This document shows, one piece after another, positions 4,354 to 29,344 of a stretch of DNA of 36,252 nucleotides. Source of the stretch: a virus; the UHGV virus genome UHGV-0046263, one strand, 5' to 3'. The first letter of the stretch is position 1. Each line of letters opens with the position of its first letter. The position numbers were made by a program, and so were the translations under genes. The notes under the pieces are model-generated. The model was not told where the DNA came from and did not search any database. It was given only the letters and a program-made list of their open reading frames with translations.

Positions 4354-4625
4354 GCATTCGTATTGAAATTGGCGAACGTTATGTCGTTACCAGTGACAGC
4401 TTTCAGTTTATTCTCCACGAGAAAAAGAGAGCGGAAAGCGGTAAAAACGCCGGTCAGGAATGGCTGGCGGTGGTTGGTTATTACCCGAAATTAAGCCAGC
4501 TCGTTTCCGGCCTGATGCATCACGATATTCTGACCGGAAGCGCAAAGTCTTTTGCTGATTTAAACGCGCAGGTTGAGCAACTCAGCAAGCGTTGTTCAGA
4601 GGCTTTTGGCTCATATGGCCGTTAA
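4350..4625 (+). CDS. Hypothetical early protein (P2 orf83 position)
   Basis: 91-aa ORF; its stop overlaps the start of A. Confidence 0.5.
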   Translation: MSIRIEIGERYVVTSDSFQFILHEKKRAESGKNAGQEWLAVVGYYPKLSQLVSGLMHHDILTGSAKSFADLNAQVEQLSKRCSEAFGSYGR

Positions 4626-6900
4626 AGCCTCCGGGCGTTTTGTCCCTCCGTCAGCATTTGCCGCAGGCACCGGTAAGACGTTTACCGGTGCTTATGCATG
4701 GAACGCGCCACGCGAGGCCGTCGGGCGCGAAAGACCCCTTACACGTGACGAGATGCGTCAGGTGCAAGGGGTTTTATCCACGATTAACCGCCTGCCTTAC
4801 TTTTTGCGCTCGCTGTTTACTTCACGCTATGACTACATCCGGCGCAATAAAAGCCCGGTACACGGGTTTTATTTCCTCACATCCACTTTTCAGCGTCGTT
4901 TATGGCCGCGCATTGAGCGCGTGAATCAGCGCCATGAAATGAACACCGACGCGTCGTTGCTGTTTCTGGCAGAGCGTGACCACTATGCGCGCCTGCCTGG
5001 AATGAATGACAAGGAGCTGAAAAAGTTTGCCGCCCGTATCTCATCGCAGCTTTTCATGATGTATGAGGAACTCAGCGATGCCTGGGTGGATGCGCATGGC
5101 GAAAAAGAATCGCTGTTTACGGATGAGGCGCAGGCTCACCTGTATAGTCATGTTGCTGGCGCTGCACGTGCTTTCAATATTTCCCCGCTCTACTGGAAAA
5201 AATACCGTAAAGGACAGATGACCACGAGGCAGGCATATTCTGCCATTGCCCGCCTGTTTAACGATGAGTGGTGGACTCATCAGCTTAAAGGCCAGCGTAT
5301 GCGCTGGCATGAGGCGTTACTGATTGCTGTCGGGGAGGTCAATAAAGATCGTTCTCCTTATGCCAGTAAACACGCCATTCGTGATGTGCGTGCACGCCGC
5401 CAGGCAAATCTGGAATTTCTTAAATCGTGTGACCTCGAAAACAGGGAAACCGGCGAGCGCATCGACCTTATCAGTAAGGTGATGGGCAGTATTTCTAATC
5501 CTGAAATTCGCCGGATGGAGCTGATGAACACCATCGCCGGTATTGAGCGTTACGCCGCCGCAGAGGGTGATGTGGGGATGTTTATCACGCTGACCGCGCC
5601 GTCAAAGTATCACCCGACACGTCAGGTCGGAAAAGGAGAAAGTAAAACCGTGCAGCTTAATCACGGCTGGAATGATGAGGCATTTAATCCGAAGGATGCG
5701 CAGCGTTATCTCTGCCGTATCTGGAGCCTGATGCGCACGGCATTCAAGGATAATGATTTACAGGTCTACGGTTTGCGAGTCGTCGAGCCACACCACGACG
5801 GAACGCCGCACTGGCATATGATGCTTTTTTGTAATCCACGCCAGCGTAACCAGATTATCGAAATCATGCGTCGCTATGCGCTCAAAGAGGATGGCGACGA
5901 AAGAGGAGCCGCGCGAAACCGTTTTCAGGCGAAACACCTTAACCGGGGCGGTGCTGCGGGATATATCGCGAAATACATCTCAAAAAATATCGACGGCTAT
6001 GCACTGGATGGTCAGCTCGATAACGATACCGGCAGGCCGCTGAAAGACACTGCAGCGGCTGTTACCGCATGGGCGTCAACGTGGCGTATCCCGCAATTTA
6101 AAACGGTTGGCCTGCCGACAATGGGGGCTTACCGTGAACTACGCAAATTGCCTCGCGGCGTCAGCATTGCTGATGAGTTTGACGAACGCGTCGAGGCTGC
6201 ACGCGCCGCCGCAGACAGTGGTGATTTTGCGTTGTATATCAGCGCGCAGGGCGGGGCAAATGTCCCGCGCGATTGTCAGACTGTCAGGGTCGCCCGTAGC
6301 CCGTCGGATGACGTTAACGAGTACGAGGAAGAAGTCGAGAGAGTGGTCGGCATTTACGCGCCGCATCTCGGCACGCGTCATATTCATATCACCAGAACGA
6401 CGGACTGGCGCATTGTGCCGAAAGTTCCGGTCGTTGAGCCGTTGACTTTAAAAAGCGGCATCGCCGCGCCTCGGAGTCCTGTCAATAACTGTGGAAAGCT
6501 CACCGGTGGTGATACTTCGTCACCGGCTCCCACGCCTTCTGAACACGCCGTAGCAGTGCTTAATCTGGTAGATGACGGTGTTATCGAATGGAATGACCAG
6601 GAGGTCGTGAGGGCGCTCAGAGGTGCATTAAAACACGGTCTGAGAAGACCAAACCGTCAGCAAAGAAACGGAAGCCCGTTAAAACCGCATGAAATAGCGC
6701 CATCGGCCAGACTGACCCGGTCGGAACGAATGCAAATTACCCGTATCCGCGTTGACCTTGCTCAGAACGGTATCAGGCCACAGCGATGGGAGCTTGAGGC
6801 GCTGGCTCGGGGAGCGACCATAAATTATGGCGGGAAAAAATTCACGTATCCGGTCATTGATGAGTGGCCGGGATTCTCAACAGTAATGGAGTGGACATAA
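4615..6900 (+). CDS. A: Replication initiation endonuclease A (rolling-circle initiator)
   Basis: 762 aa from the ATG at 4615 (P2 gpA is 761 aa); contains HxH-type motifs (PHWHMMLF) and a tyrosine-rich active-site region (GYIAKYISKN). Confidence 0.85.
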   Translation: MAVKASGRFVPPSAFAAGTGKTFTGAYAWNAPREAVGRERPLTRDEMRQVQGVLSTINRLPYFLRSLFTSRYDYIRRNKSPVHGFYFLTSTFQRRLWPRIERVNQRHEMNTDASLLFLAERDHYARLPGMNDKELKKFAARISSQLFMMYEELSDAWVDAHGEKESLFTDEAQAHLYSHVAGAARAFNISPLYWKKYRKGQMTTRQAYSAIARLFNDEWWTHQLKGQRMRWHEALLIAVGEVNKDRSPYASKHAIRDVRARRQANLEFLKSCDLENRETGERIDLISKVMGSISNPEIRRMELMNTIAGIERYAAAEGDVGMFITLTAPSKYHPTRQVGKGESKTVQLNHGWNDEAFNPKDAQRYLCRIWSLMRTAFKDNDLQVYGLRVVEPHHDGTPHWHMMLFCNPRQRNQIIEIMRRYALKEDGDERGAARNRFQAKHLNRGGAAGYIAKYISKNIDGYALDGQLDNDTGRPLKDTAAAVTAWASTWRIPQFKTVGLPTMGAYRELRKLPRGVSIADEFDERVEAARAAADSGDFALYISAQGGANVPRDCQTVRVARSPSDDVNEYEEEVERVVGIYAPHLGTRHIHITRTTDWRIVPKVPVVEPLTLKSGIAAPRSPVNNCGKLTGGDTSSPAPTPSEHAVAVLNLVDDGVIEWNDQEVVRALRGALKHGLRRPNRQQRNGSPLKPHEIAPSARLTRSERMQITRIRVDLAQNGIRPQRWELEALARGATINYGGKKFTYPVIDEWPGFSTVMEWT

Positions 6901-7053
6901 TGGCAAAAATTCACGCAATATTAGATAATTTCGTACTGTATATATTTAGTGTTATTGAAAAATCTCGACAGAAAGAGTTTTCTGTATTTAATCGTTGCTT
7001 GCAGTTTGGTATTGTTTACCATGATTGTTTGTTAAGTGCTTTAAAGGTGAGGA

Positions 7054-8892
7054 ATGAGCGAGTTTGATGTTTTTTCTATTTCAGTTGATGATTTTAAAAA
7101 AAGTGAATACGCCAGTATATTATCATCGCCAAGAAGTTATTCTCATTTTGATATGGAGTCTTATTTTGTTCAGTTGTTGTCATCTTACAAGCTAAAAAAC
7201 GATGTAAGTTCTTGGCGGCTTTGCTATTTATTACGTGCGTTGTTTAATTTTAAATTTTCTAGGTCTGGTGATATTATCGGTTTTGAGCCAAAAATCATTC
7301 TCTATCCTGAGAGGGGCTATAGGCCTTCAGATTATAAGGAGAGTTTTTCAACAATATTAACTTGTATTAAAGAAAACTCCGATAATCCTTATATTATATC
7401 TAGGGTGTGTGATGTTTTATGGATAAATAACCGTAAGGATATAGACTCTGCCAATAAAGCAATAGAGTCATATTCTCTAATGGTTAATGATGCTTGCGAT
7501 ACTTTAATAGAAAAACAAGAGTCAGGTGATATCCATATTTTTGATGTTGTTGACTGCTTGGATAGAGGTATCGCAATATCGCGCATGCTTATTGGCAGGA
7601 AAAAACAACTACAAGGGGGGATAGTTGATTCGACATTAAGGTTATATCATGTATTAATAGACTCTGGTATATTCACCGGTGTATTAAGAGTTTCTGAAAT
7701 TCTTTATAAGAATAATTTATTGTGTCCCTTGCAATTGGCTGAGAATGCAGAAAAGATAGCTGATGAGCATTGTGGAGCGTCTTATTTTGATGCAGTGAAA
7801 AAATTGTTTTATTTTGCGTCTGAATTATATGTTAAAAACGATATGGAAGAGCAAGGAAGACGGTGCAGAATTAAAGCGTCAGAAATAACATTGGCTCAAT
7901 TTGAACAGTCTTCATCTTCAATATTGAAGGCTCATTGGTTAAGAGTTGCTCTTGGCGAATTTAGAGCAATTGGTGGAATGAATGAAGAAATTAAAAAGAT
8001 TAGAGAGGAATTGAATTCTATTCGAGATCAAATCAATGATGAAATGCACTTCTTTGCAATACCAATGGATCTTAGTGATGTTATCGCTCAGAAAGAGCAT
8101 GTTTATAATCAATTGGATTTCTCAAGGGTAATTAAAACTTTAATTGCTAGATTTAAGATTGTAAGTGCCAGTGAAATTATGGAAAGAGCTCGTTCCGATG
8201 CTAAAAAACATTTTTTTCTTAATATGAGTGAAACGGTTGTTTATGATGATAGAGGGCGCGTTGTAGCAAGTCGTTCACCTTTGGATCCTGCGGGGGATAT
8301 AAGTTTAAATGATGCTTGTGCAAATTATTTAAGAACTAGTAACATTGAGCATCAGGTCTATGTTTGTGGTGAGTTTGAAGTCGTTAGGCAAAGTGTGTTG
8401 GCTAGGTATTCATTAAATGAAAATACATTTGACCCAATCTCACAACAAAGTGCATTTGTTCCACCTGGGTATGCAGAAATATTTTCTTTGGGGTTTTATA
8501 AGCTTTGGCAGGGAGATTATGTGTCTGCCTGTTATTTGTTATTGCCGCAATTGGAGAATTCAATTAGATGGATTTTAGAATTAAGAAGAAAAGAAACAAC
8601 GAAAATAGATGTGTCGCTTTTTGAGGAGGCTACTAGCCTATCTCAAATGCTTGCAAATTATAGGAGTGAAATGGAAGGTGTTTTTGATAGTGATCATGTA
8701 TTGACTATGGATTTATTGTTCAATATGAAAGGTGGTGCTGCAATTAGACACACGATGGCTCATGGCAGGTATACTGTAAATCATTGTTATCAACCAACTT
8801 CAGTTTTTGCCTGTGTCTTTATCTTTTATTTAACTTGTTTGCCTTTATTTAGTGTATGGGAAGATAAAGTTGAACCTTATCTGGCTGATTAA
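7054..8892 (+). CDS. AT-rich cargo protein, 612 aa, unknown function; possible C-terminal HEPN-like domain (candidate abortive-infection/defence effector)
   Basis: Strong ribosome-binding site AAGGTGAGG 4 nt upstream of the ATG; long uninterrupted ORF; AT-rich relative to the phage backbone; sits where tin/old lie in P2; C-terminal LENSIRWIL...AAIRHTMAHG contains an Rx4H motif. Confidence 0.7.
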   Translation: MSEFDVFSISVDDFKKSEYASILSSPRSYSHFDMESYFVQLLSSYKLKNDVSSWRLCYLLRALFNFKFSRSGDIIGFEPKIILYPERGYRPSDYKESFSTILTCIKENSDNPYIISRVCDVLWINNRKDIDSANKAIESYSLMVNDACDTLIEKQESGDIHIFDVVDCLDRGIAISRMLIGRKKQLQGGIVDSTLRLYHVLIDSGIFTGVLRVSEILYKNNLLCPLQLAENAEKIADEHCGASYFDAVKKLFYFASELYVKNDMEEQGRRCRIKASEITLAQFEQSSSSILKAHWLRVALGEFRAIGGMNEEIKKIREELNSIRDQINDEMHFFAIPMDLSDVIAQKEHVYNQLDFSRVIKTLIARFKIVSASEIMERARSDAKKHFFLNMSETVVYDDRGRVVASRSPLDPAGDISLNDACANYLRTSNIEHQVYVCGEFEVVRQSVLARYSLNENTFDPISQQSAFVPPGYAEIFSLGFYKLWQGDYVSACYLLLPQLENSIRWILELRRKETTKIDVSLFEEATSLSQMLANYRSEMEGVFDSDHVLTMDLLFNMKGGAAIRHTMAHGRYTVNHCYQPTSVFACVFIFYLTCLPLFSVWEDKVEPYLAD

Positions 8893-9072: not shown

Positions 9073-9110
9073 TGCGCGCTAAACGATGTCGCTGGCTTGC
9101 AGTTACCCGG

Positions 9111-9139
9111 TTGAAATTCTTATTTTTTTGTTGCATTAT
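9111..9139 (+). promoter_or_regulatory. Sigma70-like promoter candidate (TTGAAA, 17-bp spacer, CATTAT) upstream of the RT module
   Basis: Hexamers and spacing read directly from the sequence; no experimental support. Confidence 0.3.
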
Positions 9140-9146
9140 TCTTAGC

Positions 9147-9395
9147 GCACCAGCGATTCGCTTGGTATGCGGCAGTCAACAACATTAAATTGTCAGTTTT
9201 TGCTTTTACAAAAAAGCGTCCACTATGGACCTATCAGCGAGGCCCCACCGTCGTCAACTACGATGGTGCCGTAGCCGACGACATTACGTACGGTCGAAAG
9301 ATAGCAGAGGCTGTTGCTGACAATTGTTGATGTAAGCATCTCTGCTGTTCCACCCTTGAGTATGGGAAGACCGTACGTAACTTTGAATTTGAATG
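9147..9395 (+). ncRNA. Candidate structured ncRNA upstream of the RT (possible retron msr/msd)
   Basis: About 250 nt non-coding between the promoter candidate and the RT start, with hairpin GCTTTT-ACAA-AAAAGC (9202..9217), a 13-bp imperfect stem (9250..9262 / 9270..9282) and a perfect 12-bp inverted repeat TTACGTACGGTC / GACCGTACGTAA (9284..9295 / 9369..9380) ending 17 nt before the RT ATG. Boundaries are not defined. Confidence 0.3.
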
Positions 9396-9397
9396 GT

Positions 9398-10588
9398 ATG
9401 TTTATGGATAAATTTAAACCATACAGCAAATCCAATGCTCCTATCACAACACTTGAAAAGTTGTCAAAGGCTTTATCGATTTCTGTTGAAGAGCTTAAAG
9501 CTATTGCAGAATTATCATTAGATGAGAAATATACTCTAAAAGAAATTCCCAAAATTGACGGAAGCAAACGGATTGTCTACTCCCTACATCCTAAAATGAG
9601 ATTATTACAGAGTAGAATTAATAAACGTATTTTTAAGGAATTGGTTGTTTTTCCTTCATTTTTGTTTGGTTCAGTTCCCAGTAAAAATGATGTTTTAAAT
9701 TCTAATGTCAAACGTGACTATGTTTCATGTGCAAAGGCTCATTGTGGAGCAAAAACAGTTCTCAAGGTGGATATAAGTAATTTTTTCGATAATATCCATA
9801 GAGATCTGGTTAGGAGCGTGTTTGAGGAGATATTGCATATTAAGGATGAGGCTCTTGAATACTTGGTGGATATATGTACTAAGGATGATTTTGTCGTACA
9901 GGGGGCCTTAACATCAAGCTATATAGCAACTTTGTGTTTATTCGCTGTTGAAGGGGATGTGGTAAGACGTGCGCAGAGGAAAGGACTTGTTTATACGCGT
10001 TTGGTAGATGATATTACCGTGTCATCTAAAATAAGTAATTATGATTTTTCTCAAATGCAAAGCCATATAGAGAGGATGCTTTCTGAGCATGACTTGCCGA
10101 TAAATAAGCACAAAACAAAAATATTTCACTGTTCATCTGAACCTATAAAAGTACATGGTTTAAGAGTTGACTATGACTCACCTCGACTACCATCCGATGA
10201 AGTCAAAAGAATCAGGGCATCTATACATAATTTGAAATTACTGGCGGCAAAAAATAACACAAAAACAAGTGTTGCATACAGAAAAGAATTCAATAGATGT
10301 ATGGGGAGAGTGAATAAGCTTGGCCGTGTTGGGCATGAAAAATATGAATCATTCAAGAAACAGTTGCAGGCAATAAAACCGATGCCATCTAAAAGAGATG
10401 TTGCTGTGATTGATGCAGCTATAAAAAGTTTAGAGTTGTCGTATTCGAAAGGTAATCAAAATAAACATTGGTATAAAAGAAAATATGATTTGACGAGATA
10501 TAAGATGATTATTCTTACTCGCTCTGAATCATTTAAAGAAAAACTGGAGTGTTTTAAATCTAGATTGGCATCTTTAAAACCATTATGA
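9398..10588 (+). CDS. Retron-type reverse transcriptase (about 396 aa from the ATG at 9398)
   Basis: RT motifs in canonical order: LSKALSISVEEL, GSKRIVYSLHPKMRLLQ, CAKAH (NAxxH-like), LKVDISNFFDNI, QGALTSSYIATL, YTRLVDDITVS (YADD box reads LVDD), INKHKTKI, VHGL (VTG-like). Start uncertain (TTG 9314, ATG 9362, 9398 or 9404). Confidence 0.85.
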   Translation: MFMDKFKPYSKSNAPITTLEKLSKALSISVEELKAIAELSLDEKYTLKEIPKIDGSKRIVYSLHPKMRLLQSRINKRIFKELVVFPSFLFGSVPSKNDVLNSNVKRDYVSCAKAHCGAKTVLKVDISNFFDNIHRDLVRSVFEEILHIKDEALEYLVDICTKDDFVVQGALTSSYIATLCLFAVEGDVVRRAQRKGLVYTRLVDDITVSSKISNYDFSQMQSHIERMLSEHDLPINKHKTKIFHCSSEPIKVHGLRVDYDSPRLPSDEVKRIRASIHNLKLLAAKNNTKTSVAYRKEFNRCMGRVNKLGRVGHEKYESFKKQLQAIKPMPSKRDVAVIDAAIKSLELSYSKGNQNKHWYKRKYDLTRYKMIILTRSESFKEKLECFKSRLASLKPL

Positions 10589-11292
10589 ATGCAAATATTA
10601 GACTTCTCAAATATATTGTCGGTGTGTCGTCAGCTCTTTTTTTGATTTTTTCGCTAATTTCTCTTTTTGAAACTATTCAGAATGAAAAGCTATATGAGCG
10701 TGATATATGCTTCGATAGCCAGTGCTTAAAATTTTTTGCGGAAAAAACATCTGGTATAGTAATGTATTTTCAGGCGTTTGGATGGCTTATAACAACTTTT
10801 GTTACCGTTTTTGGTGTTATGATTGCTTTGATGACATATAACGCTGGAGTTAAAAATAATAATAATAGTAATTACACTAGTCATCTGACGATGTTTAGAG
10901 AATTTGCAAGTGCTGAGTTAACTAAAAGAAGTAGCATCTATCCAGAGAAAGTTAATTTTTTTAGATGGTATAGGGTTATGTTCCCTGAAGCGCAAGGCGG
11001 TGATATATCTGTTTCGAGAGATTATCTAGAAATAATATCTAGAATCAAATGTGTTATTGAGGAAGCCAATGCACATATTACAGAGGAAAATAAAGACTAT
11101 AAATATAAAACTCATCAGAGAAAAATGATGGCTGTTTTGGATGAAATCGGTATATCGATTAGTAATGGGCCCAAAAATATTTTTATTGAGGTTGAGAGTC
11201 AAATTTTGGATTATATCGATACTATTAATTTGTCATTTTGTCACTCCTCATCAGTGATAGAATTAAGTAGAGTAAAAAGGAAGTATATATAG
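10585..11292 (+). CDS. Two-transmembrane-helix protein, 235 aa, translationally coupled to the RT (candidate effector)
   Basis: ATGA start/stop overlap with the RT; hydrophobic segments IVGVSSALFLIFSLISLF and FQAFGWLITTFVTVFGVMIALMTY; AT-rich. Confidence 0.75.
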   Translation: MNANIRLLKYIVGVSSALFLIFSLISLFETIQNEKLYERDICFDSQCLKFFAEKTSGIVMYFQAFGWLITTFVTVFGVMIALMTYNAGVKNNNNSNYTSHLTMFREFASAELTKRSSIYPEKVNFFRWYRVMFPEAQGGDISVSRDYLEIISRIKCVIEEANAHITEENKDYKYKTHQRKMMAVLDEIGISISNGPKNIFIEVESQILDYIDTINLSFCHSSSVIELSRVKRKYI

Positions 11293-20571: not shown

Positions 20572-21357
20572 TTATGAGTGATTTTTATTTGATGCTTTGT
20601 ATTCTAAAACCTTCTTATTGGCGTAAAAGAATTTTGTATATGACAGGAATATAACCAGACCTGAAGTGAAATAGACGAGGGATAGTATTAATAATGCTTT
20701 TTTGTGACTGTTATTATCTTTAATCTCCTGGCTTAACCATTCGGAGTCCTCCTCGTTTAGCTGTAAGAGCTTATTGCAGGCGATCTCAGGAAGTGTGTCT
20801 TTTATAAATACGTTTTGCAGTCTCTTGCAATCGGCAAGGCTATAAGTTTTATTAAATTCAACTGCTTTATTTTTGAAGGATAAAAGAACTTTGTCACTAT
20901 AAACATAGTACATCATGTTTTTATATGGTATGCCTATGGCATCCCTTACTATAACGGATTGTTCGTTGTGTATGTAACATGCGAGGAGAATGTAAAAAAT
21001 ACTGGCCAGAATTACAATTATTGTTTTAATTATGTGTGGTGGTTTTGTTATGTCACCCCAGATGCGAGTAAGGAAAAAATACGATGTTTTTAGTTTTCCA
21101 TCAATCAGTCCCTGCTGTATCATTCTCACATTTTCAATGCCTGATACATTGATTCCATTAATTATTTTAAATAGTTGAATGTCGCGCCACTCGCGGTCAA
21201 GTCTTTTTAATTTTTTGTCTGAATATCCAAAATTGAAATAATGTGCAATAAGCCTCATAAGGTTACTTTTACCAAAGCTAAAAAATGCTAATACTGCAAA
21301 GCTACAAAGGAAAAAAACGATTAGCCCCCACACATTAGTCACATTATAGCTGACCAT
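20572..21357 (-). CDS. AT-rich moron: 261-aa integral membrane protein of unknown function (P2 orf30 position)
   Basis: Opposite strand to the late genes; strong AAGGAG ribosome-binding site; hydrophobic segments at the N-terminus, middle and C-terminus; AT-rich. Confidence 0.7.
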   Translation of the reverse strand: MVSYNVTNVWGLIVFFLCSFAVLAFFSFGKSNLMRLIAHYFNFGYSDKKLKRLDREWRDIQLFKIINGINVSGIENVRMIQQGLIDGKLKTSYFFLTRIWGDITKPPHIIKTIIVILASIFYILLACYIHNEQSVIVRDAIGIPYKNMMYYVYSDKVLLSFKNKAVEFNKTYSLADCKRLQNVFIKDTLPEIACNKLLQLNEEDSEWLSQEIKDNNSHKKALLILSLVYFTSGLVIFLSYTKFFYANKKVLEYKASNKNHS

Positions 21358-21373
21358 TACGCTCTCCTTGAAT

Positions 21374-21379
21374 GTTGTC
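21374..21379 (+). promoter_or_regulatory. TGTTGT element in the V late-promoter region
   Basis: Located 62 nt upstream of the V start codon, with a TATATA-like element downstream. Confidence 0.3.
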
Positions 21380-21440
21380 TGGTAGTTCTACAAATGAATC
21401 CAGATAGCATAACTTTTATATATTGTGCAATCTCACATGC

Positions 21441-22082
21441 ATGAACACTCTCGCAAATATTCAGGAACTCGCGCGCGCACTGCGCAACATGATTCGCACC
21501 GGCATTATCGTCGAAACCGACCTTAACGCCGGTCGCTGCCGTGTGCAGACCGGCGGCATGTGCACTGACTGGCTTCAGTGGCTGACCCATCGTGCCGGTC
21601 GTTCGCGCACATGGTGGGCACCTTCCGTGGGGGAGCAGGTGCTGATTCTGGCCGTGGGCGGTGAACTCGACACGGCGTTCGTTCTGCCGGGGATTTATTC
21701 CGGCGATAACCCCGCGCCGTCTGCGTCGGCGGATGCCCTGCATATCCGTTTCCCTGACGGGGCGGTGATTGAATATGAACCCGAAACCAGTGCACTCACG
21801 GTAAGCGGAATTAAAACAGCCAGCGTGACGGCTTCTGATTCTGTTACTGCCACGGTGCCGGTGGTCATGGTGAAAGCATCAACCCGCGTCACCCTGGACA
21901 CACCGGAGGTGGTCTGCACCAACAGGCTGATTACCGGCACGCTGGAAGTGCAGAAGGGCGGGAAGATGCACGGCAACATCGAGCATACCGACGGGAAATT
22001 CACTTCTAACGGCGTTCAGGTGGATGACCACGGTCACGGTGGTGTTAAGTCAGGTGACAACTGGACGCAGGGGACAAAATGA
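21441..22082 (+). CDS. V: Baseplate spike protein V
   Basis: 213 aa from MNTLANIQELARAL; P2 gpV position. Confidence 0.85.
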   Translation: MNTLANIQELARALRNMIRTGIIVETDLNAGRCRVQTGGMCTDWLQWLTHRAGRSRTWWAPSVGEQVLILAVGGELDTAFVLPGIYSGDNPAPSASADALHIRFPDGAVIEYEPETSALTVSGIKTASVTASDSVTATVPVVMVKASTRVTLDTPEVVCTNRLITGTLEVQKGGKMHGNIEHTDGKFTSNGVQVDDHGHGGVKSGDNWTQGTK

Positions 22083-26449: not shown

Positions 26450-26712
26450 GTTGTATGATCTCTGGTGTGAGCTTACATATCTATAGCACAGAGTAAAGCC
26501 TAATCTGACAGTCCGCTATGTGCCAAGAGCGGACATTCCTGACCAAGTTATGTTAATCTGCCTGTAGAAAGCCTTGGTTAACTGCTCTACGTTTTTCCTA
26601 CTTGCTTCTAACGCTTAAATATTCGGAAAGCAAAAAACATGTAACATGAGGCTTGGTAAACAACCCACTCGGTTCATCATTAGATAAAATTAACAGCAAT
26701 ATAGGTGAGCAA

Positions 26713-27714
26713 ATGTTTGAAGAGCATAATGAAGATAAAACAGTTCAGGACAGCGTAAGAAAAATGTTTTTAGCCTCTATTCCAGAGCGTCAGAATGAAC
26801 TGGATGAGTTCTGGTCTAAATTTAACATGACCTTCCAAAATCATAGCGATAATCATACAGACGGTAAATTTATTTTTGATGCGGGGATGTATCGATTTAT
26901 CCGCTTCAATCATCGTGTTTTGCGCACGTTCTGGATAGGAACATTTGCTGCAATGGCGGGCTACGAAGCAATAAACACTGAGCAAAATAAAAAAATTGAA
27001 GACATTATCGATAAAAGGGATTCTATTTTAGATCTTTTTGACTCAAAGAAAATATCATTAGTCTCAACCGAGTCAGAATTACATGTTTTACTCGAGGAGC
27101 TACAGGAAGAACTTGCTGATTTCAGTTCGGCAGACTTCGTAAACTTTGAACAGTTAATCTGCGCTTTTGAAAACACGGCTAAAGATGAGGTACCGGATGA
27201 AAAACCACTACCAATAGGAATTCCTGAACCTGGCACCATGCCTGACAGTAAAATCGAACCAGTTAAAAGAGCAACAGCTGAATTAGCAATTATTGCTGCT
27301 GCTTGGGCATTTTTGCATGAAGTCCGACATATCATTCATCAGCAGGAAGGTACCAGTTATGATATGAATGAATTCACACAAGAACAAGCTCATAATGAAG
27401 AGTTCTCATGTGATGAGTTTGCAACTAAATTCATCCTTGACCATATAGATAATTACTGTGAAGAGTCTATGTATGACCGTGTGTTGGTGAGCAGGAAAAG
27501 AAGACTTTCTATATACTGTGCATTATTCAGCGTTACTATGTTAGGTAAAAACAACTGGGGTTTTTCAAAATCTCACCCTTCACTTCAGGATAGAATAAAT
27601 AAAGTAAAAGCATTAATGAAAGAGCCTGATGATGAGGTTCTCGAATATATTGTGGAGACTATGTTTAAGTCTATTGCTAGAATCTGGCCAACCGTTCCTA
27701 CTGTCAAATTCTGA
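26713..27714 (+). CDS. AT-rich cargo protein, 333 aa, with an HExxH zinc-metallopeptidase-like motif (Z/fun position)
   Basis: AGGTGAG ribosome-binding site upstream of the ATG at 26713; HEVRH within AWAFLHEVRHIIHQQE; acidic helical N-terminal half; followed by an intrinsic terminator. Confidence 0.7.
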   Translation: MFEEHNEDKTVQDSVRKMFLASIPERQNELDEFWSKFNMTFQNHSDNHTDGKFIFDAGMYRFIRFNHRVLRTFWIGTFAAMAGYEAINTEQNKKIEDIIDKRDSILDLFDSKKISLVSTESELHVLLEELQEELADFSSADFVNFEQLICAFENTAKDEVPDEKPLPIGIPEPGTMPDSKIEPVKRATAELAIIAAAWAFLHEVRHIIHQQEGTSYDMNEFTQEQAHNEEFSCDEFATKFILDHIDNYCEESMYDRVLVSRKRRLSIYCALFSVTMLGKNNWGFSKSHPSLQDRINKVKALMKEPDDEVLEYIVETMFKSIARIWPTVPTVKF

Positions 27715-28237: not shown

Positions 28238-29344
28238 TTATTCATCGTATTTAGGTGAGAAAACACTTATTTCTTTGGACCAGATGCCGAAACCTTCAAT
28301 ATCAAGGGTGAACTCAATAGGTAATTTGCTATCTTTATATTCAGTTGGTATCACCCGAATATTTTTGACATTTTTTACACAATGTAATGGAGTGTATTTG
28401 TTTTTTGTGATTGAATCAAAAATTGGTATACAAGATAAGCGTATAACTTCTAATTTAACTAATTTGTCTAGCCACATTGTTCCTTCAAAGTCATGGAAGA
28501 ACTGTCTTATTCTGGAACCCAATGTTGGATGGGAATAAATCTCACCTCTAATGGTGGAAAGGGAAGTATATATTTTTTGTGGTAAAGCTTCAAACCCCGA
28601 TATCGTAGCTATATCACCAGAACTATTTACAAATAAATCGCCTGTCGTGAAAATATCTAAATCCATTGGGAGGCTATTGCAATTGATGCGCGGAGTGTCT
28701 ATTTCAACAGGGACGATTACTTCATAGCTATCTGGTAATTTATTTAATTTTATTGGTGCTGATAACAAACGCCCCTCACCAAGTTGATTAACTAGAATAA
28801 ATTTTTCTTCGGTAGGGATGGAGTGGAATCTTTCGTTGAAAGATATTAACTTAGATAAATCGCCAGTAAAGAAGTTTGCAAATTTTATAGTCCACTCATT
28901 GGTTGAGATTCCGGTAAGCTCTCCGAAAACGATAATGTCTATACCTATTGCAATGAAATCATTATGTTTGGTTGATGAAGAACCATTGCTCACCTCTTTT
29001 TTAATCTCTTCTTCGTGGGCTTTCTTCATTTCTTTAAGAATTTCTGCTGTATATCTAATTTCATCTCTATCAATTTCAACGCTGTGATTAACACACATCC
29101 AGATGCCATTATTTATATCTTTCCTTTCATCTGGTGTTTGATTAGGATCATATCGTCTTGCTAATGGCCCAGGAGCTGCGGCATGAATGTGCGCAGCTAC
29201 CCCAATATTTGTGATAGATGTTAAGGATTCATCACTGGGGCCAACTGTAAGCTGATTACAACCGGGGAATGAGCACCTATAACCAGCCCGTAGTGCTAGA
29301 GCTCTTACAGTTTTTGAGCTGAAATCATCGCGTGTTTTAGACAT
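28238..29344 (-). CDS. AT-rich cargo protein, about 368 aa, with an N-terminal HNH nuclease domain and a C-terminal domain of unknown function
   Basis: CxxC (CSFPGC) ... AAHIHAA ... NGIWMCVNHS arrangement typical of HNH; start taken at the ATG at 29344 (MSKTR); the ORF could extend to a TTG at 29380. Confidence 0.7.
   Translation of the reverse strand: MSKTRDDFSSKTVRALALRAGYRCSFPGCNQLTVGPSDESLTSITNIGVAAHIHAAAPGPLARRYDPNQTPDERKDINNGIWMCVNHSVEIDRDEIRYTAEILKEMKKAHEEEIKKEVSNGSSSTKHNDFIAIGIDIIVFGELTGISTNEWTIKFANFFTGDLSKLISFNERFHSIPTEEKFILVNQLGEGRLLSAPIKLNKLPDSYEVIVPVEIDTPRINCNSLPMDLDIFTTGDLFVNSSGDIATISGFEALPQKIYTSLSTIRGEIYSHPTLGSRIRQFFHDFEGTMWLDKLVKLEVIRLSCIPIFDSITKNKYTPLHCVKNVKNIRVIPTEYKDSKLPIEFTLDIEGFGIWSKEISVFSPKYDE

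Follow-up and report, generated by a model that had tools for sequence, protein, structure and literature searches.

ORF612, an open reading frame at positions 7054 to 8892 of the virus genome UHGV-0046263 (36,252 nt, here called the window, meaning the whole stretch of DNA analysed), is a horizontally acquired cargo gene in the gpA–cos defence hotspot of a P2-like Escherichia coli prophage. Its product is a single polypeptide of three parts, with an N-terminal DUF7380 domain, a central TPR-like solenoid and a C-terminal HEPN domain that appears to be of the DUF4209 (C6orf70/ERMARD) type. We found that the C-terminal part has a HEPN-like fold with an intact active-site signature, composed of E501x3R505 together with R565-H-x3-H570, and that the gene is a stand-alone unit, separate from the retron module on the other side of cos. 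The HEPN domain is a probable RNase, and in our judgement there is a reasonable, somewhat better than even, likelihood that ORF612 encodes a latent single-protein RNase that is expressed in the lysogen and causes exclusion or abortive infection upon superinfection.

Results

ORF612 is a genuine and compositionally foreign gene

The initial annotation of the window, made from the letters alone, had described a 612-aa reading frame immediately right of replication gene A, where P2 carries tin and old, with a strong ribosome-binding site and an AT-rich composition unlike that of the backbone. All of these points could be confirmed, with the following features defining the locus:

4573..6900, + strand: P2 gpA-type gene for the replication endonuclease, bordering the hotspot on the left, given for context
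7043..7053, + strand: purine-rich Shine–Dalgarno region AAAGGTGAGGA, directly 5' of the ORF612 ATG
7054..8892, + strand: ORF612 coding sequence, 612 codons from ATG to TAA, with the product corresponding to WP_001288417.1
9054..9072, no strand: P2/P4 cos core GGCGAGGCGGGGAAAGCAC, separating ORF612 from the retron module

The reading frame starts 153 nt past the stop codon of the gpA-type gene and ends 161 nt before the cos core. PF05840 was present in the gpA-equivalent genes of the homologous loci, and the identical cos core also occurs in P4 cos-adjacent cloned sequences (Rousset et al. 2022, Table S2B). In that study the gpA–gpQ interval by cos was described as a P2 defence hotspot, occupied by old and tin in the P2 reference. 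The features that characterize cargo of this hotspot, being location between gpA and cos/gpQ, atypical composition and variable content, were all found for ORF612.

The guanine-plus-cytosine content (GC) of ORF612 was 0.344, with 0.263 at third codon positions (GC3), as compared to 0.537 and 0.559, respectively, for gene A and a GC of 0.52–0.58 for the backbone genes Q and P (portal and terminase). With a GC far below that of gene A, Q and P, the gene is compositionally foreign. An AAGG equivalent to that of the Shine–Dalgarno region is marked as ribosome-binding site in the GenBank record of P2-EC46 (AM157366), and an AAGG element located 7–10 nt 5' of the start was also seen in diverged ORF612 homologs. 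The ratio of nonsynonymous to synonymous substitution rates (dN/dS) was 0.20–0.27 against four homologs and was alike in the N-terminal, middle and C-terminal thirds of the gene. Considering this ratio together with thousands of full-length homologs, ORF612 is a real gene under purifying selection and no chance frame.

A 55-codon open reading frame (6900–7067, + strand), starting at the stop codon of gene A and overlapping the start of ORF612, was considered as a possible partner or antitoxin but was rejected for lack of conservation, being shortened or missing in diverged homologous loci; it is probably not a gene. As a separate observation, residue 386 of ORF612 (8209–8211, + strand) is His where the representative of its 90% cluster (P0001) has Arg, which is the sole difference between the two. 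Scanning the window for Rfam families and tRNA genes gave no match.

A HEPN-like domain with intact active-site motifs at the C-terminus

A possible HEPN-like Rx4H motif following helical segments had been proposed from the letters, with remote-homology searching and structure prediction suggested as checks. Those analyses gave DUF4209 relatives (see below) and a HEPN-like four-helix model, and the motif was located at R565-x4-H570 and found to be 99–100% conserved. The two strings that had been pointed out, LENSIRWIL and GGAAIRHTMAHG, correspond to residues 500–508 and 560–571 of the product, respectively. The features of the domain are:

8473..8883, + strand: HEPN domain, approximately residues 474–610, four helices plus an insert
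8554..8568, + strand: Ex3[KR] motif E501-N-S-I-R505, in the predicted helix 489–510 (helix 2)
8746..8763, + strand: Rx4-6H catalytic motif R565-H-T-M-A-H570, with a polar His after the Arg, followed by an invariant G571
8800..8856, + strand: last helix SVFACVFIFYLTCLPLFSV, residues 583–601, very hydrophobic and Cys-rich, modelled as HEPN helix 4

HEPN domains have been defined by three elements (PMC3710099). They form an up-down bundle of four helices, in which helices 2 and 3 are separated by an insert. Helix 3 ends in an Rx4-6H motif whose Arg is followed by a polar residue (N, D or H), and helix 2 holds a conserved acidic residue, usually within Ex3[KR]. In ORF612, helix 1 spans residues 474–486, helix 2 residues 489–510, the insert residues 511–545, helix 3 approximately residues 546–569 and helix 4 residues 581–610, with helix 581–610 closing an up-down bundle that carries its insert between helices 2 and 3. 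The predicted helix 546–557 is followed by R565-H-x3-H570, and helix 3 ends with the Rx4-6H motif. Among 151 family representatives, conservation reached 100% for E501 and 99% for R505 in helix 2, and 99% for R565, 100% for H570 and 100% for G571 at the catalytic motif, while the motif Arg is followed by H in sequences of the P2 clade and by N in those of a distant clade. All three elements of the definition were found here, and we assign the C-terminus as HEPN. One HEPN domain was detected per ORF612 chain.

The proteins listed for the HEPN assignment were, with their figures, Csm6 (6.4, 6.1 and 5.7), HEPN/MNT toxins (6.1 and 6.0), AbiA (5.8), Roquin (5.7 and 5.2) and the sacsin HEPN domain (5.6), followed by the related helical domains of GlnE and DrrA and, further down, by LsoA, RnlA and Las1. 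Foldseek comparison of the HEPN domain model with the PDB gave nothing significant (best E 0.74), with Csm6 and a HEPN protein as the top names, and sequence searches of the PDB using full-length and C-terminal profiles gave no HEPN relative.

The last helix has a Kyte–Doolittle value of 2.17 over 19 residues, which is a hydrophobicity of transmembrane grade, and in the P2-borne clade it is also rich in Cys. The equivalent helix in the distant clade scored 1.2–1.7 and includes one or two positively charged residues (Arg or Lys). In the AlphaFold2 (AF2) domain model it is packed as helix 4, with predicted local distance difference test (pLDDT) values of 94–98.

Domains N-terminal to the HEPN domain

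In the remainder of the polypeptide three segments were distinguished:

7075..7605, + strand: DUF7380 domain (PF24098), residues 8–184, Pfam E=1.9e-24
7618..8226, + strand: central all-alpha TPR-like solenoid, approximately residues 189–391
8233..8274, + strand: predicted beta-hairpin linker, residues 394–407, between the solenoid and the HEPN domain

The DUF7380 domain has near-invariant residues at R87, D93, R117, D120, W123, Y140 and R171, as seen in the same 151 representatives. In the hairpin, G401 is 99% conserved and R402 is invariant in a 12-sequence set. The possibility that DUF7380 could be a second, cryptic HEPN domain was rejected, with hhalign giving a probability of 0.4% in comparison to the HEPN domain. 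By analogy with proteins that join a sensor to a HEPN domain, such as the CBS-HEPN system DS-11, we propose that DUF7380 would serve as a sensor or regulatory module, and the same analogy suggests such a role for the hairpin.

ORF612 appears as a diverged member of a large DUF4209 family

Scanning the product against Pfam gave DUF7380 only, NCBIfam gave no match and PHROGs gave a match to a family of unknown function. On the Pfam model for DUF4209 (PF13910) the product scored 12.5 bits (E=0.16), which is below the gathering score of 22.3 bits, although this sub-threshold match was in register, with residues ~500–587 aligned to profile positions 1–83 of 89. Matches to PF13910 (E<=10) were found for 10 of 12 full-length homologs, the best at E=4e-19, and PF13910 was present in the precomputed database annotation of five of the 12, including two at 51% identity. 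Homologs at 35–88% identity carry DUF7380, and those of the same length at ~20% identity carry DUF7380 together with PF13910/DUF4209. Membership is thus based on transitive full-length homology, with the score of ORF612 itself being sub-threshold, and judged by these alignments ORF612 appears to encode a diverged DUF4209 member belonging to a prophage-borne, AT-rich clade.

An exhaustive profile search gave 5,870 clusters at 50% identity, of which 2,072 were found at E<=1e-30. Almost all of these clusters were 590–640 aa long and aligned end to end, which points to a large family with a fixed architecture. A word-indexed profile search recovered the same 12 proteins only, and the family size is therefore taken from the exhaustive search.

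Using PADLOC, both PDC-S39 models matched ORF612 (E=2e-68 and 1e-67) over residues 8–600, with residues 8–599 aligned to profile positions 7–583 of 595 at E=2e-68, and the match was thus full-length to a single gene, as PDC-S39 is defined. PADLOC gave no match for ORF612 other than PDC-S39. For AbiJ, AbiD/F, AbiV, ApeA, Csm6/Csx1 and RloC/PrrC, no family model of PADLOC, NCBIfam or Pfam matched. Anantharaman et al. 2013 (PMC3710099) described DUF4209 as the C6orf70-type HEPN family and predicted it to be catalytically active, with bacterial members fused to TPR repeats and found in operons related to restriction–modification.

ORF612 is a stand-alone unit

The initial annotation had regarded ORF612 as separate from the reverse transcriptase (RT) module across cos, and comparison of loci bore this out. 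In E. coli ECC-1470 an identical locus is annotated as 'replication endonuclease' followed by 'DUF7380 domain-containing protein', the gene being identical at the DNA level and having two small, unrelated genes rather than a retron behind it. Homologs at 88, 77, 52 and 35% identity immediately follow gpA in further P2-like prophages, where the neighbours differ or are lacking, and in two loci (L005 and L015) the homolog is the sole gene of the slot. No conserved neighbour, whether an MNT nucleotidyltransferase or otherwise antitoxin-like, was adjacent to the gene in the homologous loci compared. The varying neighbours, the ECC-1470 copy without retron and the lack of conservation of the 55-codon frame together establish that the gene stands alone. 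It was found in 21 of 5,426 complete E. coli genomes.

Distant family members adjoin integrases or prophage ends, and one adjoins GAPS4, NERD and IS21 genes. Another member (L014, 8001–9857, metagenome assembly SRR1587771) was observed inside a DISARM-like operon with overlapping stop and start codons, composed of genes for a DNA methylase, SNF2, an MmeI-type methylase, the DUF4209 protein, a 1,490-aa helicase, NERD-UvrD, MZB/DUF1998 and PLD. This suggests that some family members act as parts of larger systems.

Comparison with catalogued and known systems

ORF612 is an already catalogued, computationally predicted defence candidate, and the HEPN family to which it appears to belong was reported in 2013. 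With ORF612 of P2-EC46, from strain ECOR46 (AM157366), it shares 99.9% identity. Its exact sequence is listed by Rousset et al. 2022 as P2-hotspot system #55, "DUF4209", with 76 occurrences, and the exact order of genes seen here is found in their Table S5A as WP_001288417 + hypothetical + RVT_1. DefensePredictor (Science 2026) lists WP_001288417.1 as "Predicted novel defense gene", at a log-odds of 8.85 against a cutoff of 4, with the AbiJ C-terminal (HEPN) domain as nearest known defence homolog (HHblits 63%); the protein is not in the table of tested systems of that study. System #55 is not among the clones of Rousset et al., and we found no published test of the ORF612 protein in the literature. 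Our literature searches gave no demonstrated RNase or defence activity for any DUF4209/C6orf70 member, bacterial or eukaryotic, and found nothing on DUF7380, on P2-EC46 or on ERMARD as HEPN, with PDC-S39 appearing in lists only.

Rousset et al. cloned a paralog of ORF612, their system #13, from E. coli S88 as pFR103 ('Putative HEPN'). It shares the architecture of ORF612 and occupies the same gpA–cos slot, although the two are only 28% identical along the 399 residues of its sequence as given in the supplement (E=2e-54). The clone is missing from the validated list and appears solely among the additional systems that were tested, from which we conclude that no protection was detected against eight coliphages. 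The authors of that study reported that about two thirds of the cloned hotspot systems were inactive on their panel, and considered that a larger phage panel would probably raise the success rate.

With regards to domain organization, the common C-terminal domain with conserved Ex3R and Rx4H of the DUF4209/C6orf70 (ERMARD)-type HEPN family (PF13910, PMC3710099) is shared with ORF612, and the TPR fusions and restriction–modification-related operons of its bacterial members fit the solenoid of ORF612 and the DISARM-like context of its homolog. PADLOC PDC-S39 has the same single-gene architecture, but PDC entries are unvalidated candidates obtained computationally through guilt by embedding, so that the match gives a label and no mechanism. 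AbiJ, AbiD/F, ApeA, RloC/PrrC and the CBS-HEPN system DS-11 join a regulatory or sensing part and a HEPN RNase within one polypeptide, which is the logic proposed for ORF612, and in DS-11 mutation of the HEPN catalytic residues abolished defence; the sensor domains of these proteins are, however, unrelated to the DUF7380 domain and solenoid of ORF612. In contrast to the HEPN-MNT type II/VII toxin–antitoxin systems, ORF612 has no adjacent MNT or other conserved partner, and its product is four to five times larger than the HEPN-MNT toxins, with N-terminal domains of its own. P2 Tin and Old occupy the same genomic slot and have the same presumed task of excluding competing phages from the lysogen, but have no homology to the HEPN protein. 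Old belongs to the ATPase-TOPRIM nucleases, and the target of Tin is the single-stranded DNA-binding protein of T-even phages.

Other cargo of the prophage

Several further genes of the window are of defence type or have an AT-rich composition:

9314–10588, + strand: retron RT, type IV, Ec48-family (PADLOC RT_IV, 1e-176)
10585–11292, + strand: retron effector with two transmembrane segments (2TM; NCBIfam retron_Ec48_2TM, 2e-67)
20572–21743, - strand: two AT-rich open reading frames of 261 aa and 128 aa (GC ~0.36), in the GC-rich late region
26653–27714, + strand: Lit-like Peptidase_U49 protein in an AT-rich stretch (Pfam 3.8e-07, above cutoff; PADLOC Lit 6.7e-11)
28238–29344, - strand: 368-aa HNH-like protein (PADLOC PDC-M68A and CBASS-type HNH effectors)

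The retron module (9314–11292) has a GC of 0.32–0.35 and is situated between cos and Q, the portal gene. The true start of the RT is probably located some 30–35 codons downstream of the listed TTG, and Rfam gave no match for the expected retron non-coding RNA (ncRNA) upstream, at ~9100–9400. The first ~110 residues of the HNH-like protein were identical to the printed sequence of DS-7 ('SVIR', WP_225403053.1), which is an experimentally validated DefensePredictor system, and WP_225403053.1 is found on the same contig as WP_001288417.1 in a strain of the ECOR set. The prophage hence holds at least four defence-type cargo genes, which are ORF612, the retron, DS-7 and the Lit-like gene. Neither the 261-aa nor the 128-aa reading frame matched Pfam or PADLOC; these may be further cargo.

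Discussion

The reading frame, its composition, purifying selection, hotspot position and independence, as well as the domain architecture, motif conservation and HEPN-like fold of its product, are directly supported by the analyses above. Building upon these properties we propose a mechanism in which RNase activity, dimerization, the trigger, N-terminal sensing and the anti-phage phenotype are all putative. The lysogen would express the ORF612 protein in a latent state, and the part of the protein composed of DUF7380 and the solenoid would recognize a cue from a superinfecting phage. Such recognition might relieve an inhibition of the HEPN domain or drive its dimerization. In HEPN RNases the active site normally spans two Rx4-6H motifs, and the ORF612 chain carries a single one. 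RNA would subsequently be cleaved by the HEPN domain in a metal-independent manner, leaving 2',3'-cyclic phosphate ends, and that cleavage would stop translation and thereby lead to abortive infection or exclusion.

An active HEPN RNase could also serve purposes other than defence, as an addiction or stress toxin stabilizing the prophage, as a regulator of the turnover of host or phage RNA in lysogeny or induction, or as a counter-defence factor. HEPN domains do occur in RNA processing and in toxin–antitoxin systems, the same-slot paralog pFR103 gave no protection against eight phages, and the inactivity of about two thirds of the cloned hotspot systems also speaks for such roles. That eight-phage panel is nonetheless a weak negative according to its own authors, no antitoxin-like partner is conserved beside the gene, family members are found within or beside defence operons, and two independent defence predictors flag ORF612 in a slot that is a documented defence hotspot; we therefore find a role outside of defence unlikely. 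With yet lower probability, the C-terminal domain might be HEPN-like without being catalytic, acting through binding as a ligand- or RNA-binding module or a scaffold, in the manner of HEPN domains fused to nucleotidyltransferases. HEPN domains that are non-catalytic have typically lost the Rx4-6H motif (PMC3710099), whereas the R, the H and the Ex3R pair are here kept at 99–100% throughout a family of thousands of diverged sequences, and Anantharaman et al. predicted the C6orf70 family to be catalytically active.

The hydrophobicity of the last helix raises the further question of a C-terminal membrane anchor, as has been proposed for ERMARD at the endoplasmic reticulum, which would make ORF612 an inner-membrane-tethered RNase or a membrane-disrupting effector and would render the four-helix HEPN model partly wrong. 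The confident packing of that helix as helix 4 in the AF2 model, without which the HEPN fold would be incomplete, and the lower hydrophobicity with one or two Arg or Lys residues of its equivalent in the distant clade make us regard an anchor as quite improbable. That ORF612 would be a component of the neighbouring retron, finally, is to be considered only because the two are adjacent in the window and because an arrangement of ORF612, 2TM and RT recurs in Table S5A of Rousset et al. The cos site lies between them, the identical gene occurs without a retron in ECC-1470 and its homologs can be the sole gene of the slot in other prophages, and retrons of the Ec48 type are complete with ncRNA, RT and 2TM. 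The occurrences without a retron effectively refute a function as retron accessory, and we give it hardly any credence.

A latent, phage-triggered HEPN RNase acting in the lysogen thus stays our preferred reading of ORF612. Reading of the raw sequence alone had here picked out a defence candidate that was already catalogued, and the RefSeq label 'DUF7380 domain-containing protein' would be better replaced by DUF7380 / TPR-like / HEPN, PDC-S39. As a compact, single-gene and E. coli-native example, ORF612 is convenient for testing the function of DUF4209/ERMARD-type HEPN proteins. If it is an active RNase triggered by phage, this would validate PADLOC PDC-S39, provide the first function, biochemical as well as biological, for the DUF4209/ERMARD HEPN family, which is widespread in bacteria and also conserved in eukaryotes, and mark DUF7380 as a new sensor or regulatory module.

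More generally, it is conceivable, at slightly less than even chances, that proteins with the DUF7380 / TPR-like / DUF4209 architecture form a very large class (over 5,800 clusters when grouped at 50% identity) of single-protein, sensor-coupled abortive-infection HEPN RNases, carried on prophages and defence islands and being bacterial relatives of eukaryotic ERMARD/C6orf70. Should ORF612 indeed defend its host through R565 and H570, it would be the first function assigned to a HEPN family that can be traced to the last eukaryotic common ancestor, and would supply a further connection between immunity or RNA decay in bacteria and in eukaryotes.
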